Positions 2,045-20,320 of a stretch of 64,000 bases of DNA are shown here, piece after piece. Position 1 is the stretch's first letter. Every line of letters begins with the position of its first letter. Position numbers and translations under genes: made by a program. The DNA comes from Armatimonadota bacterium (lineage in GTDB: Bacteria; Armatimonadota; Hebobacteria; GCA-020354555; CP070648), in NCBI GenBank assembly GCA_035527535.1, contig DATLAK010000084.1:9413-73412 (forward strand). Reading direction: 5' to 3'. The notes under the pieces are model-generated. The model was given only the letters and a program-made list of their open reading frames with translations, did not search any database and was not told where the DNA came from.

Positions 2045-2854
2045 ATGAGTCCCGAAGCGATACAGCACCGCCGCGAGCGCGTCTGCCCTTTCAAGGCAGC
2101 GAAATGCACGAAGGACAAGAAAGATGACCCGCTCGGCGTGTGTAGCGTCTTTGCTGACGACAAGGTGGTCATCACCTGCCCTATGCGGTTTCGCCAAGAC
2201 TGGCTTGTTGCCAAAGACGCGGCGTCCTTTTTCTTCCCGGCCAGCGCGCACTTGGCGACGTTAACCGAAGTGCGCGTGAAAGACAAGTACGGCAAACTCG
2301 CGGGCGATATCGACCTCGTCCTCGTGTCTGTTGATGACGCGGGGCGCGTGCTAGATTTCGGCGCGCTGGAGGTGCAGGCGGTGTATATCACCGGCAACGT
2401 GCGTAACCCATTCGCGTACTACATGCAGAACCCGAAGGCGCGCCAAGAAATGAACTGGGCGAGGCAACCGAACTACCCTGGGCCTGATTATCTGTCGTCC
2501 TCTCGAAAGCGCCTAGCGCCACAGTTGCTGTTCAAAGGCGGCATTCTTCATTCTTGGGGAAAGAAGACCGCGGTGGCTCTGAACACGGGCTTCTTTGAGA
2601 CGCTGCCCGCCCTTGACGCCGTGGCATGTGAAAGAGCGGACATCGCGTGGTTTGTCTACGACCTGGAGCACCACGCGGCGCGGAACGTTTACACGCTGAA
2701 GCGTCGCCGAGTCGTGTACACCAAGTTTGAGGAGAGCCTCGCCAAGATTACGCGATCTGCCCCTGGCCCCATGGCCGATTTCGTCCGCGTCCTGCAGAAG
2801 AAGCTGGCCACTCAGTTAGAGGGCAACTCACAATCGGGCGTCAGCGATGACTAG
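2045..2854 (+). CDS. Type II restriction endonuclease, NotI-family-like (N-terminal Cys4 metal site)
   Basis: CPFKAAKC...GVCSV...ITCPMRFRQDWLV resembles the NotI Fe-Cys4 motif (CPF...C...GVCVV...DWLVCPNRA). Overlaps the downstream MTase by 8 nt. Local GC ~57%. Confidence 0.55.
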   Translation: MSPEAIQHRRERVCPFKAAKCTKDKKDDPLGVCSVFADDKVVITCPMRFRQDWLVAKDAASFFFPASAHLATLTEVRVKDKYGKLAGDIDLVLVSVDDAGRVLDFGALEVQAVYITGNVRNPFAYYMQNPKARQEMNWARQPNYPGPDYLSSSRKRLAPQLLFKGGILHSWGKKTAVALNTGFFETLPALDAVACERADIAWFVYDLEHHAARNVYTLKRRRVVYTKFEESLAKITRSAPGPMADFVRVLQKKLATQLEGNSQSGVSDD

Positions 2855-3737
2855 CATAGGATATCAACTGGATCTGGACGGGGCGCCGACGGCCGACCAG
2901 GTGGTAAACGTCGCGTCGGTTCCGCAGCGCAGTCCCTTCCGCTATCCGGGCGGAAAGACCTGGCTGATTCCGCGCGTCCGTCAATGGCTGCGTTCTCTCC
3001 CGAAGCGGCCCTCCGTGTTGGTGGAGCCATTCGCGGGCGGCGCGATTGTTGGCCTTACGGTAGCCTTTGAGCGCTTGGCCGAAAAGGTCGTTCTGGTCGA
3101 GCTTGATGAGCAGGTCGCCGCCGTCTGGAAGACTATCCTCAGCGACGACTGCGAGTGGTTAGTCGGCCGCGTGTTGTCCTTCACCCCGACCTTGGAGAAT
3201 GTGCGCGCGGAGCTTGCGAACACAGACCCGACCACGCCGGCGCTGGCCTTCCGAACCCTAGTCAAGAACCGCACCTATCACGGCGGCATTATCGCGCCCG
3301 GTAGCAGGCCTATGAAGAACGGCGAAAACGGGCGGGGATTGAAGTCCCGATGGTATCCCAGAACGCTAGCTGGACGGATACGGGCGATAGCGAGCATCCG
3401 CGACCGCATCACTTTCACCGAGGGCGATGGCATTGCGGTCATCCGCACCTACGCGCGCCGAAAGACCGCGGTGTTCTTCGTAGACCCCCCGTACACGGCG
3501 GCCGGCAAGAGGGCCGGCATGCGGCTCTACACGCATCACGTCCTCGACCATGAGAGGTTATTTGCGACCACGGCGCGCGTCGCGGGCGACTTCCTGATGA
3601 CCTATGACAACGCGGAAGACGTCGCGGCGCTCGCGGTAGCGCACGGCATGCAGACCCGGACGATTGCGATGAAGAACACCCACCATGCGCAGATGACCGA
3701 ATTGCTTGTCGGGCGCGACTTGAGCTGGTTGCGCTAG
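2847..3737 (+). CDS. DNA N6-adenine methyltransferase (D12/Dam-like, alpha class)
   Basis: Motif I EPFAGGAIVG precedes motif IV FFVDPPY. N-terminal FRYPGGK. Translationally coupled to the upstream REase. Confidence 0.8.
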   Translation: MTSIGYQLDLDGAPTADQVVNVASVPQRSPFRYPGGKTWLIPRVRQWLRSLPKRPSVLVEPFAGGAIVGLTVAFERLAEKVVLVELDEQVAAVWKTILSDDCEWLVGRVLSFTPTLENVRAELANTDPTTPALAFRTLVKNRTYHGGIIAPGSRPMKNGENGRGLKSRWYPRTLAGRIRAIASIRDRITFTEGDGIAVIRTYARRKTAVFFVDPPYTAAGKRAGMRLYTHHVLDHERLFATTARVAGDFLMTYDNAEDVAALAVAHGMQTRTIAMKNTHHAQMTELLVGRDLSWLR

Positions 3738-10803: not shown

Positions 10804-10833
10804 TTGACGATCCCGCCAAACGTGTGTTAGCAT
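10804..10833 (+). promoter_or_regulatory. candidate sigma70 promoter: TTGACG-N17/18-TGtTAGCAT
   Basis: -35 TTGACG 10804-10809. Extended -10 TGtTAGCAT ~10825-10833. Lies ~35 bp upstream of the island's first gene. Confidence 0.35.
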
Positions 10834-10868: not shown

Positions 10869-11126
10869 TTGAAAGAGTACGAGGAATGGTACAGGGCGAA
10901 TCCTCTGCGTCAGTGGAGGGAAGGGCAGGAGCCTCGCGTATCGCGACCCGCGCTCGCCCACGAGATGATCGTTCGCGGGTATTCCATCACCCCCGCGACC
11001 ATCCAGCGTTGGGAGTGCGGCGAGTACGCAGTGCCCGATGCGGCGATGAAGTTGCTGGCGGAGATCACGGGCATGCGCGACCTGCGCGCGAGGTGGGAGA
11101 AGTGGCAGGGAGGGCGTGCGAGATGA
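10869..11126 (+). CDS. XRE/Cro-type helix-turn-helix protein (85 aa), TTG start
   Basis: HTH pattern SRPALAHEMIVRGYSITPATIQRWECGEYAVPDAAMKLLA. RBS GGAGGG sits 7 nt upstream of TTG. In-frame stop immediately upstream. Confidence 0.5.
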   Translation: MKEYEEWYRANPLRQWREGQEPRVSRPALAHEMIVRGYSITPATIQRWECGEYAVPDAAMKLLAEITGMRDLRARWEKWQGGRAR

Positions 11127-11245: not shown

Positions 11246-11881
11246 ATGCCGCTTACAGGCCCAAGAGCCCTGTTGCTGGCATTGCTATACGCTCCTGGCG
11301 CAAGGCGGATGCCCGGAGAACCCATCGCCGGTATCACGCGCCTGCAGAAACTACTGTTCCTCCTGCAGGAGGAGTACGGATTGCGGAAAGGCGGCCGGGG
11401 GGTTCTGGTCTTCGAGCCGTACCGGTTCGGTCCGTACTCGGCGGCCCTGTATGACGAGATCAGCTTCCTCGAGAACCTGAATCTCATCACGGACAGGAGA
11501 GATACGGGGGCGGCGAGCGCCGAGGAGACTGAGCAGGAGGACAAGCTGGTCGAGGGACTCATGGCGGAGGCAGAAACGGAAGGCAGCATCGGGGCGGAAA
11601 TTAGTGAGGAGGACGTGAAGGGCCTGGAGTACCTTCTAGATGATGTGCCTGGCGAGGACGCCCTCGAGGCGAATCCTGACGAGAGGCAATTCTGCCTCAC
11701 GCCCAGGGGCATGGCCTCTGCGAAGGCCGTCTTTGACTCGCTCAGCTCCGACGAGCGGCATGCCCTTGAGAGCGCCAAATCGAGGTTCGGAGGCATGTCG
11801 TTGAGGAACCTCATCCGGTATGTCTACACGCAGTATCCGGAATCGGCAAGCGAATCGGAGATCAGGGATCGTATACTGTGA
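11246..11881 (+). CDS. Panacea-domain (SocA-like antitoxin) protein with acidic C-terminal extension
   Basis: ITRLQKLLFLLQEEYG...FEPYRFGPYSAALYDEI matches the Panacea/SocA hallmark (hxLQKLLY...GPxxxxLY). RBS GGAGGT upstream. Confidence 0.5.
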   Translation: MPLTGPRALLLALLYAPGARRMPGEPIAGITRLQKLLFLLQEEYGLRKGGRGVLVFEPYRFGPYSAALYDEISFLENLNLITDRRDTGAASAEETEQEDKLVEGLMAEAETEGSIGAEISEEDVKGLEYLLDDVPGEDALEANPDERQFCLTPRGMASAKAVFDSLSSDERHALESAKSRFGGMSLRNLIRYVYTQYPESASESEIRDRIL

Positions 11882-12402
11882 TGGTTCCTACGACCGCGCA
11901 GATGGGGGCGGCAGGTGCGGTTCTGGCATTCGCAGCTGGCGCGCTCGCATTGCTTCACAACTCAAAGCGGATGGAGCGTGCCAGAGATCTTGCCGCCGCC
12001 CAGTCGCGACTTTGGGAGCGAGCAGTACTTGAGTTGCGCGAGCACATCCAGCGTCTCCATGACCTGGCTGATAGATGCATGGCGGAGTCGGGTCCGGAAG
12101 CTGGGACAGCCGGCCAGATGCGGCGTCTCTTGCGTCGGTCCAGGGGGTGTGTTCGCCGCCTGGACGCGCCGATTCGGCTAGGCAAGTGGGTCTCTGGTAC
12201 CGAGAGGAGCATGTTTGCTTCCGCCCTCGGGCTGGTTGCTTCGTGTCTGGCCGTGCTGCTCGGCGGCGCATTTTCGTTCAGCCCGTTCCCGTATGCGACT
12301 TGGATGGGTGTGGGGAGCGGCGCGGCCTTGGTACTCAGCTATGGTGGCAATTATGCCGCTATCTGCTGCTGCGAAAGGCTGATGAGGGCGCAAGGGCTGT
12401 AG
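11878..12402 (+). CDS. membrane protein with central coiled-coil (candidate toxin partner)
   Basis: ATGA start/stop overlap with the upstream gene. One N-terminal TM helix, a coiled-coil in the middle, two C-terminal TM helices. Confidence 0.45.
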   Translation: MMVPTTAQMGAAGAVLAFAAGALALLHNSKRMERARDLAAAQSRLWERAVLELREHIQRLHDLADRCMAESGPEAGTAGQMRRLLRRSRGCVRRLDAPIRLGKWVSGTERSMFASALGLVASCLAVLLGGAFSFSPFPYATWMGVGSGAALVLSYGGNYAAICCCERLMRAQGL

Positions 12403-12414
12403 GGAGTGCCGAGC

Positions 12415-12828
12415 ATGACCGAGATCGAGATCGAGGAAGCGGTGGCCGAGTTCCTCTCCCGACCTGGTTGTCTTGTGGAGCGGCAGGTAGCCTTTCTCCG
12501 AAAGGTCGCGGATGTCTGCTCCTACGATCCTGTCTGCGACACGCTGCTGGCTGTGGAGGCGAAGCGAGAGGACTGGCGCCGCGGGATGCAGCAGGCGCGG
12601 TATTACCAGCTCTTCGCCGACGCCGTCTACATCGCTCTGCCAGAATGCCGGGCGCTGCGTGTCCGAACGCCGCAACTCGAAGAGACAGGCATAGGTCTCC
12701 TTGTGGTGAACAGCACAGTCTCTGTCAGCGTGGAACATGGCCACAACCCTTTCCGCCGAGATCTGTGTCGTGAGATGGTGATTGAGCGTCTTCGCTCTGG
12801 CCCGCGAAGTGGAGGGGGGAACCGCTGA
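12415..12828 (+). CDS. PD-(D/E)xK nuclease, RecB/Cas4-like family
   Basis: CDTLLAVEAK (D...ExK) followed by QQARYYQ (QxxxY). RBS AGGGAG. An alternative GTG start lies at 12406. Confidence 0.5.
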   Translation: MTEIEIEEAVAEFLSRPGCLVERQVAFLRKVADVCSYDPVCDTLLAVEAKREDWRRGMQQARYYQLFADAVYIALPECRALRVRTPQLEETGIGLLVVNSTVSVSVEHGHNPFRRDLCREMVIERLRSGPRSGGGNR

Positions 12829-14150
12829 TGTCATTTGCCGCTGCACAGGCCCCCCAGAATCTGTATCGGCTTGGAACGCACGCCGAAGCGGAGTATTACC
12901 GCCATCTGAAGTCCGCTTACGACGGCATGATCGTCAATGCCAACCTGGTAGAGGCGACCCCGAAGGCCACAGCCTCGTTCCTGGCTACACAAGGCAAGCC
13001 CTTTCTGCTCGACCCGATGACATACGCGTTCGGGCTGAGTCCTGCGGTGCTGCATAGCAACTCCAAGCGCGGGGGGATGAAACGCTCATTTGCCGCTCTA
13101 GCCGAACGATATGGCGGGGTCATACTGAAGCTGGCCGGCAAGGAGGCGATAGGGCCGGATGCCTTCCAGCGAGATTCGGACGTGTCTGACCTTGCCAAGG
13201 CCGTCATCAGTTACCAACTACACCGCTTCGATGATATAGCGAATGAGATGAAAGATGCTGCCCCTGAGGCGTTCGGCGGACTCACCGGACTCTCGCCTGC
13301 TGGGGCGATTGCACCCTACTTCCACATTGATGAGGTCATCGAGCCGGCGCTCTCACTGAACACGCGGCTTCTCCGCGCCGCTGTCTCCCTCCAGCCCGAG
13401 CAGCCAATCTACGCCATGCTGTGCCTTTCCAGCGGGATTCTCTTTGCTGCAAATCTGCTAGACACGATCGCGGGTGCCTACGTGACGGCTGGCGCGACGG
13501 GTTTCATGTTCTGGTTCGATGACGCCACGGAGCGGACCATCGGGACTCTGGGCGTGCAGAATCTCGTCAGATTTGTGAGAGCGTTGAGCCAGAATGGGCA
13601 CTCGGTCTACAACGCTTACGGCGGCTGCCTCTCCGCCCTTCTTTCTCGCTTTGGCCTTTGCGGCTTCTCGCATGGCCTCGGTTACGGAGAGCGCAGGTCG
13701 ATTGTGCCTGTGACGGGCGGAAGTGTTCCGCCACCGAAGTACTATGTTCCGCCGCTCTGCGAGCGGTACAATGTGACGACCGTCTTGCTGATTGCCCCTT
13801 CCGTGCAGTCTGGGATCGACTTTCACGCAGAGATATGCGGCTGCGCAGTCTGTCGCCGGGTGCTGGCAGGTAACCCGGATCGGCTTGTTGAGTTCGGTCG
13901 AACCAGAGATATGTCCGACAAGAATGGGCGGCCTATCAGCGTTCCCACCGCTGAAAGCATCAAGCTTTGCCGGCTTCATTACATGCTCGCGAAAAGGGAC
14001 GAGGTAAACCGGATTCGGGCCAACTGGAGCAGCGCAGTCGAAAGCCTGGCCGTGGCCTACGAGAAGTACGTCGATGTCCTCGGCAAGCCCGAGGTGGCTC
14101 ATCTCGATGTGTGGCACCGCGAACTGACTGCCGCCAACCGAAAACCGTGA
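12828..14150 (+). CDS. hypothetical protein with CxCxxC...H zinc site, possibly tRNA/DNA-guanine transglycosylase (TGT/DpdA)-like
   Basis: TGATG overlap with the nuclease gene. CGCAVC...H motif. DTIAGAYVTAGATGFMFWFDDA resembles the TGT DDIVGAVERGIDMFDCV region. Fold assignment is inference. Confidence 0.55.
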   Translation: MSFAAAQAPQNLYRLGTHAEAEYYRHLKSAYDGMIVNANLVEATPKATASFLATQGKPFLLDPMTYAFGLSPAVLHSNSKRGGMKRSFAALAERYGGVILKLAGKEAIGPDAFQRDSDVSDLAKAVISYQLHRFDDIANEMKDAAPEAFGGLTGLSPAGAIAPYFHIDEVIEPALSLNTRLLRAAVSLQPEQPIYAMLCLSSGILFAANLLDTIAGAYVTAGATGFMFWFDDATERTIGTLGVQNLVRFVRALSQNGHSVYNAYGGCLSALLSRFGLCGFSHGLGYGERRSIVPVTGGSVPPPKYYVPPLCERYNVTTVLLIAPSVQSGIDFHAEICGCAVCRRVLAGNPDRLVEFGRTRDMSDKNGRPISVPTAESIKLCRLHYMLAKRDEVNRIRANWSSAVESLAVAYEKYVDVLGKPEVAHLDVWHRELTAANRKP

Positions 14151-14459: not shown

Positions 14460-15011
14460 GTGGTTCCCAACGTGCGCTTCTCTCAATCAATAAGCAGGCT
14501 TCCCGCAGAGGACAGGAAACCGCCCTGGGAGTACCGCGTCAAGTTTGAGAACGCTGGCAGGAGAGCCATCATGGATGTCGAGGTGACAGCCAGACTTCGA
14601 GTGAAGCGCTTGGTCGCGACCCGTCCTGGCAATTGGTGGGTGTCCAGCATTCCTGTCGAGTACGGTGACCCCATATGCAGGGTCCCTAAGATGGGACCCG
14701 TGCGCACAGGGGCACGTCGCCAAATTGTGCCGCTTCTGGTGAACGACGCGGAGCAGTTCAGACAGGCTCCCTATCCGGCAGAGGTCAGGGAGAAGGCACA
14801 GAACCGATCTCTGCTGCCGGAGGATCTACTGCGGTTGGGCGATAGGACGGAACTGCGGCTCATCGTCTCCGGATATGATGCCTTCAGCGGCGCCCGACGG
14901 CTCTTCGTATCAAAGGAATACACCGTGGGCGACATCATCGACGGACGGTTCAACAAGGATGGACTAGAAGTAATACCGCAGGCTAGTGAGCCGTCTGAGC
15001 CTTCCGCGTGA
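14460..15011 (+). CDS. hypothetical protein
   Basis: GC3-consistent ORF. No recognised motif. Start uncertain (GTG 14460 or ATG 14569). Confidence 0.35.
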   Translation: MVPNVRFSQSISRLPAEDRKPPWEYRVKFENAGRRAIMDVEVTARLRVKRLVATRPGNWWVSSIPVEYGDPICRVPKMGPVRTGARRQIVPLLVNDAEQFRQAPYPAEVREKAQNRSLLPEDLLRLGDRTELRLIVSGYDAFSGARRLFVSKEYTVGDIIDGRFNKDGLEVIPQASEPSEPSA

Positions 15012-19245: not shown

Positions 19246-19764
19246 ATGGCGCGCGCGTTCATCGGCATCGGCTCCAATATCGCCCCCGAGCGGAACCTGC
19301 GCGCCGCGCTGCGCCGGCTCGCCCGCGACGCGCGCGTGATGGGTGTTTCGACGGTCTATCGCACGGCGCCGGTGGGCCGCCCCGAGCAGCCGCCGTTCTA
19401 TAACTGCGTGGTCGAGATCGAGACCGGGTTGGCGCCGGCGCAGGTGCGGAGCGCCTTGCGCGGCATCGAGCAGGAACTGGGCCGCCGCCGCGGCGCCGAC
19501 CGGTACGCGCCGCGCGCCATAGACCTGGACCTGCTGCTGTACGATGACCTGGTGATGGCGAACGCCGAGCTGGTGCTGCCGGATCCGCAAATCGCGCAGC
19601 GCCCGTTCCTGGCGCTGCCGCTGTACGAGCTGGCGCCGGAGCTGGTGCTGCCCGATAGCGGGGATCCCATTCGGGAGGTCGCCGCCGCCATGGCAGCCCA
19701 CGACATGCAGCCGCTGCCGGAGTACACGCGGCTTCTGCGAGAGGGTATCGCCCATGAATCGTGA
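19246..19764 (+). CDS. folK: 2-amino-4-hydroxy-6-hydroxymethyldihydropteridine pyrophosphokinase
   Basis: AFIGIGSNI...YRTAPVG...[10 protein letters not shown] matches the HPPK signature. Confidence 0.85.
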
Positions 19765-20320
19765 CAAGGTCGAGCGACTGGTGAGAGAGCTGCTGGCCGA
19801 AATCGGCGAGGACCCCGAGCGCGAGGGCCTGGTCAAGACCCCGCGGCGCGTCGCCGCCGCGCTCGAGTTCTTGACCGCGGGCTATGGCGCCGACCTCAAG
19901 ACCATCATCGCCGGCGCGGTCTTCACCCAGCAGACCAACAACATGGTCATCCTGCGCGACATCGAGCTCTACAGCCTGTGCGAGCACCACCTGCTGCCGT
20001 TCTTCGGGCGCTGCCACATCGGCTACATCGCCCGCGGCAAGGTCTTCGGCATCAGCAAGCTGGCGCGGCTGGTGGACGCCTACGCGCGGCGGCTGCAGAT
20101 CCAGGAGCGCCTGACCGAGCAGGTCGCACGGGCGGTGATGGAGGGCATCGGCGCCGAGGGCGTGGGCGTCATCATCGAGGCGCGGCACCTGTGCATGATG
20201 ATGCGCGGGGTGGAGAAGCAGAACTCGCTGATGATCACCTCCTCGGTGCTGGGGAGCTTCCACGACTCCGCCGCCACCCGCAGTGAGTTCATGTCGCTCA
20301 TCGGCAGAGCCCATATCTGA
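19754..20320 (+). CDS. folE: GTP cyclohydrolase I
   Basis: [26 protein letters not shown]. Confidence 0.9.

Follow-up and report, generated by a model that had tools for sequence, protein, structure and literature searches.

Among the systems closest to the locus described here, PanA/PanT toxin–antitoxin pairs were delimited by Kurata et al. (2022) as two, at most three, conserved genes lying no more than 100 nt apart, and one validated membrane toxin of this kind, the Helicobacter PanT, joins a coiled-coil N terminus to C-terminal transmembrane (TM) helices (PMC8832971). In DarTG, DarG's C-terminal domain sequesters the DNA-modifying toxin DarT (PMC7003065). In the tRNA/DNA-guanine transglycosylase (TGT) superfamily, TGT and DpdA share three invariant active-site aspartates, which serve as acid/base, in base recognition and as nucleophile (Asp256; PMC10164549), and Cap10, the TGT homologue of the cyclic-oligonucleotide-based antiphage signalling system (CBASS), has lost the zinc site. 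Here we analyse a locus on a 64,000-nucleotide stretch of an Armatimonadota metagenome-assembled genome (MAG; contig DATLAK010000084.1), hereafter the window, where an earlier note had flagged a Panacea-domain gene (A) and an overlapping membrane-protein gene (B) as a PanA/PanT-like toxin–antitoxin pair. We find that these two genes form the first half of a four-gene cassette, A-B-C-D, that is conserved, translationally coupled and horizontally mobile and whose third and fourth genes encode a predicted PD-(D/E)xK-type nuclease and a putative, sequence-divergent member of the TGT-fold superfamily (Table 1). This composition, together with the domain assignments, is in our judgement very probably correct.

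Table 1 Features of the cassette and its surroundings in the window (position 1 is the first nucleotide of the window)
Feature	Position	Strand	Description
Gene A	11246–11881	+	211 aa; Panacea/SocA-like, DarG-C-terminal-domain-like putative protein-binding module; winged helix and three C-terminal helices
Acidic disordered insertion of A (residues 86–146)	11501–11683	+	61 aa, net charge −20, within the wing hairpin
Gene B	11878 (GTG) or 11881 (ATG)–12402	+	174 or 173 aa; N-terminal TM helix, charged helical middle, C-terminal hydrophobic region
Gene C	12406–12828	+	140 aa from the GTG at 12406; predicted small PD-(D/E)xK-type nuclease
Catalytic-motif region of C	12511–12594	+	D36 (12511–12513), E51-x-K53 (12556–12564), Q63 (12592–12594); invariant alignment columns
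Gene D	12828–14150	+	440 aa; putative divergent member of the TGT-fold superfamily, no Pfam family
D62-P63 of D	13011–13016	+	C-terminal end of barrel strand 59–62; D62 in 84/91 and P63 in 90/91 homologues
Putative zinc-site motif of D	13836–13979	+	C337-x-C339-x-x-C342 (13836–13853), H384 (13977–13979)
85-aa open reading frame	10869–11126	+	119 nt upstream of A, in the GC trough
Promoter-like site	10804–10833		At the 85-aa open reading frame
Orphan open reading frame	14460–15011	+	146–183 aa (gene callers: 14571–15011, 146 aa); just 3′ of D, in the GC trough
NotI-family restriction endonuclease and D12-class adenine methyltransferase genes	~2045–3737	+	Overlapping genes, ~7.5 kb upstream of the cassette
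GTP cyclohydrolase I (FolE), FolB and HPPK genes	~19754–20320 and neighbours	+	About 5–6 kb 3′ of the cassette

A conserved four-gene cassette

Conservation was assessed over 80 genome loci encoding relatives of A, in which all open reading frames (ORFs) of 50 aa or more lying within 4 kb were clustered. Exactly three recurrent families emerged, A itself (80/80), C (68/80) and D (65/80), which invariably share one strand and one order, and no conserved gene was found upstream of A or downstream of D in these 80 loci. At the median, C (~146 aa) lies about 590 nt and D (~430 aa) about 1,030 nt downstream of A, offsets that leave a slot of ~190 aa for B between A and C. Loci lacking C or D are mostly cut at contig ends or are stand-alone fusions of a winged helix–turn–helix (HTH) domain in Hadarchaeota. 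The association also holds from the other side: a metagenome search seeded with D, in which only loci with 1.7 kb or more of sequence upstream were counted, recovered A upstream in all 29 such loci and C in 27 of them. In the window the four genes adjoin or overlap one another: A and B share a GTGA or TGATG overlap, B and C are separated by 3 nt and C and D overlap as TGATG.

Haloarcula plasmids carry A, C and D without B, so B is not the sole or obligate partner of A, and no locus holding only A and B was seen among the complete bacterial loci examined. With a conserved unit of four genes, a link between A and D that holds in both directions and an A-C-D variant that dispenses with B, the reading of A and B as a self-contained two-gene pair is not supported. 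Full-text literature searches returned no description of this gene combination, nor anything about PDC-M19, about YwgA or about a TGT-like defence cassette so composed.

The Hadarchaeota fusions, found in MAGs (loci L059, L062, L071, L072, L077 and L079; P0097, P0100 and P0101), are stand-alone proteins of ~238 aa in which an HxlR/PadR-type winged helix precedes or follows an A-like domain in one chain, and their surroundings hold none of B, C and D; they represent a different use of the A-like domain, perhaps as a regulator.

The Panacea-like protein and the small membrane protein

Gene A lies where the earlier note had placed it and encodes the 211-aa protein with the ITRLQKLLFLL motif it had described; a second motif, FGPYSAALYDEI, is present as well, and a GGAGG Shine–Dalgarno sequence precedes the start by 5 nt. 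The PF13274 (SocA_Panacea) profile, the test by which the Panacea label was to be judged, matches residues 33–195 (profile positions 1–108 of 113) with E = 2.8e-5, yet the score of 25.4 bits stands 0.3 bits under the Pfam gathering cut-off of 25.7; among relatives of A, 8 of 25 match this profile at E ≤ 0.01. Other libraries give a weak DarG match and a weak SocA_antitoxin match (E = 0.013) in NCBIfam, a match to PHROG 14939 (E = 2e-12) and SocA-domain or DUF4065 labels on the haloarchaeal homologues in RefSeq. PADLOC returns a weak match to the C-terminal part of its DarG model and a stronger one to PDC-M19A, over residues 31–94 of A (model positions 22–80 of 294, E = 5.7e-13). As the latter covers the N-terminal quarter of PDC-M19A only, and PADLOC has no model that matches B, C or D, the cassette is not PDC-M19.

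The closest structure to A is the C-terminal, toxin-sequestering domain of DarG (PDB 7yk3). An AlphaFold2 (AF2) model of A, with a predicted local distance difference test (pLDDT) score of 79.8, comprises three helices, a two-stranded wing (residues 81–85 and 147–151) and three C-terminal helices. Profile and structure evidence together uphold the Panacea-type call of the earlier note at the level of the wider superfamily: A falls, as a divergent member, among the toxin-binding domains of the Panacea/SocA/DarG-C-terminal-domain superfamily. Residues 4–108 of A align with DarG models (PADLOC PDLC02990, positions 162–255; NCBIfam NF048014, positions 170–255) and with PDB 7yk3; a common KLqKL…F…yGPyS motif and a common fold make the Panacea domain and the toxin-binding domain at the DarG C terminus appear homologous. 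The locus differs from DarTG in that A has no macrodomain and no DarT ADP-ribosyltransferase is encoded; the candidate partners are instead a TGT-fold protein and a PD-(D/E)xK nuclease. The ‘recognition helix’ of A, PYSAALYDEISFLENLNL, is itself acidic (net charge −3), which makes DNA binding by A unlikely, and a role as DNA-binding regulator was rejected on this ground.

The acidic stretch of A, which had been read as a low-complexity C-terminal tail, proves to be internal: the stretch proper spans residues ~92–125 of 211 and belongs to a disordered insertion (pLDDT about 47–56) between the two wing strands, followed by the conserved C-terminal helical bundle with its LIRYVYTQYPE motif. A has about 100 full-length relatives at 30–40% identity. 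In the alignment a variable acidic linker occupies the same position in all relatives, and across the A family of the cassette the insertion is always acidic, with a median of 33 aa and a net charge of −7.5. That of the window is the longest among B-holding cassettes. It is possible that the insertion serves as a nucleic-acid mimic or sensor. Its length reaches 63 aa in one locus without a detected B (L107) and is only ~15 aa on the Haloarcula marismortui plasmid pNG400; a correlation of insertion length with B presence was dropped, there being too few genuinely B-less loci, and most apparent ‘no B’ loci were artefacts of the ORF filter used.

Gene B does overlap the stop codon of A (TGA, 11879–11881), as GTGA or TGATG rather than through the ATGA of the earlier note. 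Of the three TM helices proposed there, the N-terminal one (residues 9–27) and the first C-terminal one (a strong segment at 116–134) are borne out, whereas the second C-terminal one is a weaker segment near the C terminus that stays under the Kyte–Doolittle threshold in the window protein. In nearly all bacterial loci the gap between A and C holds an ORF of ~180–205 aa with an N-terminal TM helix and one or two C-terminal ones, two in most positional equivalents, and these ORFs mostly overlap the stop and start codons of the adjoining genes. Sequence tells us far less. A word-indexed search found no homologues of B, and the window protein was never recruited by phmmer or jackhmmer against 60 positional equivalents; many of the proteins in this slot are linked to one another by iterative searches, never to window B, and an alignment of 53 sequences has no conserved columns. 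Weak matches to SLATT (E = 0.05–0.19) are confined to the TM segment, and that identity was dismissed. Gene callers disagree on identical DNA, reporting B as 63 aa (12211–12402) on three contigs and as 173 aa on one. The reading of B as merely the 63-aa C-terminal ORF was rejected, since conserved synteny and topology argue that the long form is genuine; automated annotation, given this split, will often miss or truncate the gene. B is thus a small membrane protein that is genuine, full-length and translationally coupled; it keeps its position and topology while its sequence evolves very fast. Its architecture, which the earlier note had taken for that of a small membrane toxin, resembles that of membrane PanTs (PMC8832971). 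Three loci have B broken into two ORFs, of which the first carries the N-terminal TM helix and the second the C-terminal ones (L057, 6531–7143; L064, 6528–7136; L073, 6507–7056), which reflects either assembly frameshifts or decaying B genes.

A plain PanA/PanT type II pair, in which B would be a membrane-depolarising toxin directly neutralised by A, with C and D a separate adjacent module, draws on much of this evidence: A is Panacea-like, B overlaps the A stop and has a TM layout recalling validated membrane PanTs, and the rapid divergence of B fits a toxin co-evolving with its antitoxin. We nonetheless regard it as very unlikely, because A, C and D stand together in 65 of the 80 loci and A precedes D in every D-seeded locus, all four genes are start/stop-coupled, A-C-D exists without B on Haloarcula plasmids, and the complete bacterial loci include none with A and B only. 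The spacing of the genes falls within the limit of Kurata et al., whose criteria bar operons conserved beyond three genes, whereas the conserved unit here has four, not two or three. Further differences from PanA/PanT are that the partners C and D are fixed in this clade rather than promiscuous, that A carries the acidic disordered wing insertion and that some variants keep A, C and D without B.

The nuclease and the TGT-like protein

For C, an alternative start at the ATG at 12415, 8 nt past a GGGAG motif, gives 137 aa, the length also reported by gene callers, and is likely the true one. Residues D36, E51, K53 and Q63 are invariant across 41 sequences, so that the PD-(D/E)xK signature motif is present. 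Members of the C family weakly match a range of Pfam families (MmcB-like, NucS_C, UPF0102, MTES_1575, HSDR_N_2, NERD and Mrr_cat), the best match being to MmcB-like at 4e-6 in one member, and in the PDB the sequence best matched is that of 3dnx (E = 0.18; uncharacterised protein SPO1766), the alignment running across D…ExK. C resembles the small PD-(D/E)xK nucleases (MmcB-like, YraN/UPF0102, the NucS C-terminal domain and Mrr/MTES_1575) in its length of ~140 aa and in having D…ExK…Q at the usual spacing; it differs in that no member of its family reaches a Pfam family threshold, which makes the family an unclassified branch of these nucleases. The intact D…ExK…Q motif argues for C as a small PD-(D/E)xK nuclease.

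D is more divergent at the sequence level. It matches nothing in Pfam, NCBIfam, PHROGs or PADLOC; no significant Pfam match, to TGT or any other family, was found for window D or for 29 D members scanned at E ≤ 1, and a PDB profile search returned insignificant matches to triosephosphate isomerase (TIM) barrels and none to TGT. The AF2 model is confident (pLDDT 91.5 and a predicted template-modelling score of 0.90) and shows a TGT-type (β/α)8 barrel with a long helical insertion after strand 3. Foldseek ranks TGT first (E = 1.5e-5), and unrelated TIM barrels score at most 13.8 in structural comparison. The family is large, with about 1,080 clusters (50% identity) at E ≤ 1e-3.

Conservation was read from 91 homologues that are 17–36% identical to window D. 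Conserved positions are G16, D62-P63, P157, P163-Y164-F165, W229, G265-G266, G276, G283, Y286, Y306, C337, C339, C342, H384, E392 and W429. The active-site face of a TIM barrel is formed by the C-terminal ends of its strands, and it is there that G16, D62-P63, P163-Y164-F165, W229, G265-G266, G283 and Y286 lie in the model. The three cysteines are each present in 88 of the 91 homologues and H384 in all 91. An hhalign comparison places the ICGCAVCRR segment of D on ECDCYTCRN of Escherichia coli TGT (C302/C304/C307), with low probability and over the zinc motif only; the CxCxxC…H of D is a putative TGT-like zinc site. Unlike Cap10, D retains this site, which points to nucleic-acid binding by D. 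D62 is the sole aspartate conserved at 85% or more, and it may be equated, by strand order only, with Asp102 of TGT and Asp95 of DpdA. With a single conserved aspartate, at most one of the three catalytic aspartates of TGT and DpdA is retained.

Fold and motif together suggest that D represents a new, sequence-divergent TGT-fold branch with a zinc site, a conserved pocket where the barrel has its catalytic face and a single conserved aspartate. It shares the barrel fold with the superfamily at large (bacterial TGT, archaeal ArcTGT, eukaryotic QTRT1/QTRT2, the DNA preQ0 insertase DpdA and Cap10) and the zinc motif with TGT, and departs from the superfamily in having no TGT profile match, one conserved aspartate against three in TGT and DpdA, and the helical insertion after strand 3. 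D would therefore be a TGT-fold protein but not a canonical transglycosylase, and could perform other chemistry or act as a non-catalytic reader in the manner of QTRT2.

The surroundings of D differ from those of the TGT-derived conflict systems in lacking QueC, DpdB and a cGAS/DncV-like nucleotidyltransferase (CD-NTase). For type IV CBASS (CD-NTase, the QueC-like Cap9, the TGT-like Cap10 and an effector), no CD-NTase or QueC match was found in A–D, nor any conserved neighbour; for Dpd restriction–modification (R-M) systems (DpdA, the DpdB ATPase, DpdC and dpdD–K), no ATPase domain was found in A–D and no conserved gene beyond A–D in the 80 loci. These comparisons bear on the proposal of a minimal Dpd-like R-M system, in which D would put a host-made 7-deazaguanine (preQ0 or preQ1) into the cell's own DNA and C would restrict unmodified incoming DNA, with A and B as regulatory or localising accessories. 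Such a system is improbable: TGT and DpdA keep all three aspartates invariant where the D family conserves one, DpdA needs the DpdB ATPase and no gene for an ATPase or for 7-deazaguanine synthesis is conserved within the cassette or next to it, and neither an antitoxin-type binding domain nor a membrane protein belongs to the make-up of R-M systems.

Distribution, genomic setting and proposed function

The cassette occurs in more than 12 bacterial phyla, among them Planctomycetota, Acidobacteriota, Actinomycetota, Chloroflexota, Bacteroidota, Bacillota, Verrucomicrobiota, Omnitrophota, Bdellovibrionota, Sumerlaeota, Eremiobacterota, Pseudomonadota and the Armatimonadota of the window, and its archaeal hosts are Thermoplasmata, Heimdallarchaeota and haloarchaea. 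Two plasmids of cultured organisms carry it. Plasmid pSI-1 of Arthrobacter sp. AK-1 (NC_010494.1, 4339–7167; L134) encodes the full A-B-C-D directly after a relaxase gene, and pNG400 of H. marismortui (NC_006392.1, 4949–7185; L133, also hits H7 and H8) encodes A-C-D, without B, adjoining parA and an HNH endonuclease gene; there A is annotated as a SocA-domain antitoxin by the Prokaryotic Genome Annotation Pipeline. In the window, the cassette lies in a 4.5-kb GC trough (0.59–0.63 against 0.67–0.70 in the flanks), and the GC content at third codon positions is 0.66–0.79 in the island genes against 0.87–0.93 in the adjoining genes. No flanking tRNA and no convincing direct or inverted repeats mark the island boundaries in the window. 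Elsewhere the nearest neighbours are heterogeneous and mostly housekeeping genes, a few being integrases, transposases, a phage portal or matches to AriA/Old/Gabija-like proteins, MADS, MzaA and Cas4.

This pattern also bears on the idea of a non-conflict housekeeping or accessory pathway of nucleic-acid modification or repair, for example a membrane-associated base exchange with its own regulator. The ordinary metabolic or regulatory character of most immediate neighbours elsewhere would suit it, and TGT-family enzymes are classically tRNA-modification enzymes. It is the least probable of the explanations we considered, and highly improbable in itself, given the sporadic occurrence across phyla without conserved neighbours, the carriage on plasmids and the atypical composition in the window; an extremely fast-evolving B and an antitoxin-type domain in A are, moreover, features typical of selfish or defence cassettes.

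Several further genes surround the cassette in the window. The 85-aa ORF upstream of A, at which the promoter-like site lies, has weak HTH matches (HTH_31, E = 0.02; Aca2/YdiL, 0.04; NCBIfam VC1465 family, 1.8e-4); other loci have no such gene conserved ahead of the cassette, and it may thus be a regulator of local scope that arrived together with the island. The orphan ORF 3′ of D has no profile-library match and no counterpart in the 80 related loci. Farther upstream, the overlapping NotI-family and D12-class genes look, from precomputed Pfam labels, like a type II R-M system. On the other side, FolE, FolB and HPPK probably serve ordinary folate synthesis; the pathway to 7-deazaguanine, however, also begins with FolE, which is of note given the TGT-like D.

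The cassette is most likely a toxin–antitoxin-like or anti-phage conflict module, and we consider it probable that A is the restraining component of such a module. By analogy with PanA or the DarG C-terminal domain, A would bind and inactivate one or more partners. Because A-C-D persists without B, and because A and D are mutually obligate, the pair C/D is the likelier target, so that A would most likely hold the nucleic-acid-acting proteins in check and possibly B too, its acidic insertion perhaps occluding a nucleic-acid-binding surface. Once A is displaced or lost, D may recognise or alter a guanine-type base in DNA or RNA, after which C would cleave. B may tether the complex to the membrane or be a second, membrane-damaging effector. 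To this explanation as a whole, a four-gene conflict module in which A restrains its partner or partners and D and C act on nucleic acid, we give even credence.

One sub-case of it is that D is a sensor of modified bases, either non-catalytic in the way of QTRT2 or hydrolytic, reading 7-deazaguanine-type bases of phage DNA or tRNA and recruiting or activating C, with A as a DNA-mimicking lock. We hold this to be unlikely, as it is purely inferential and leaves the role of B unexplained. A broader proposal, which we put forward tentatively and with more doubt than conviction, is that of a new immune or addiction system built on a hitherto unrecognised TGT-superfamily branch, in which D reads, excises or exchanges a guanine-type or 7-deazaguanine-type base in invading DNA or tRNA and hands the lesion to C, while the acidic wing of A would act as a nucleic-acid-mimicking lock and B would sit at the site of DNA entry or serve as a suicide effector.

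Several observations weigh against a conflict module with a nucleic-acid-acting C/D pair under the restraint of A. For D, the Foldseek margin of TGT over generic TIM barrels is modest, the nucleophile and base-recognition aspartates of TGT and DpdA have no conserved counterpart, and the protein may be non-catalytic like QTRT2; in the D of Arthrobacter pSI-1 the three cysteines of the zinc site are all missing, which shows that one lineage at least can do without this site. The net charge of C averages +6 over its family and is −1 in the window. Charge complementarity between the insertion of A and the middle of B is absent, the soluble middle of B having a median net charge of 0. The mostly housekeeping immediate flanks make enrichment in defence islands weak. 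No cassette match was found in IMG/VR or INPHARED, so that there is no sign of a phage origin; this absence from phage collections is neutral for defence and gives no clue to a trigger.

As neither the C nor the D family has a Pfam model, current annotation and PADLOC do not see the cassette. The cultured, plasmid-borne examples on pSI-1 and pNG400 make the proposed conflict module, with A restraining its partners, directly testable. If it is correct, Panacea-type antitoxin domains would not be confined to two-gene pairs and would also gate a multi-enzyme cassette, and D would represent a third TGT-derived lineage, after DpdA and Cap10, to have been recruited into prokaryotic conflict systems, one that lacks two of the three canonical catalytic aspartates and has kept its zinc site.

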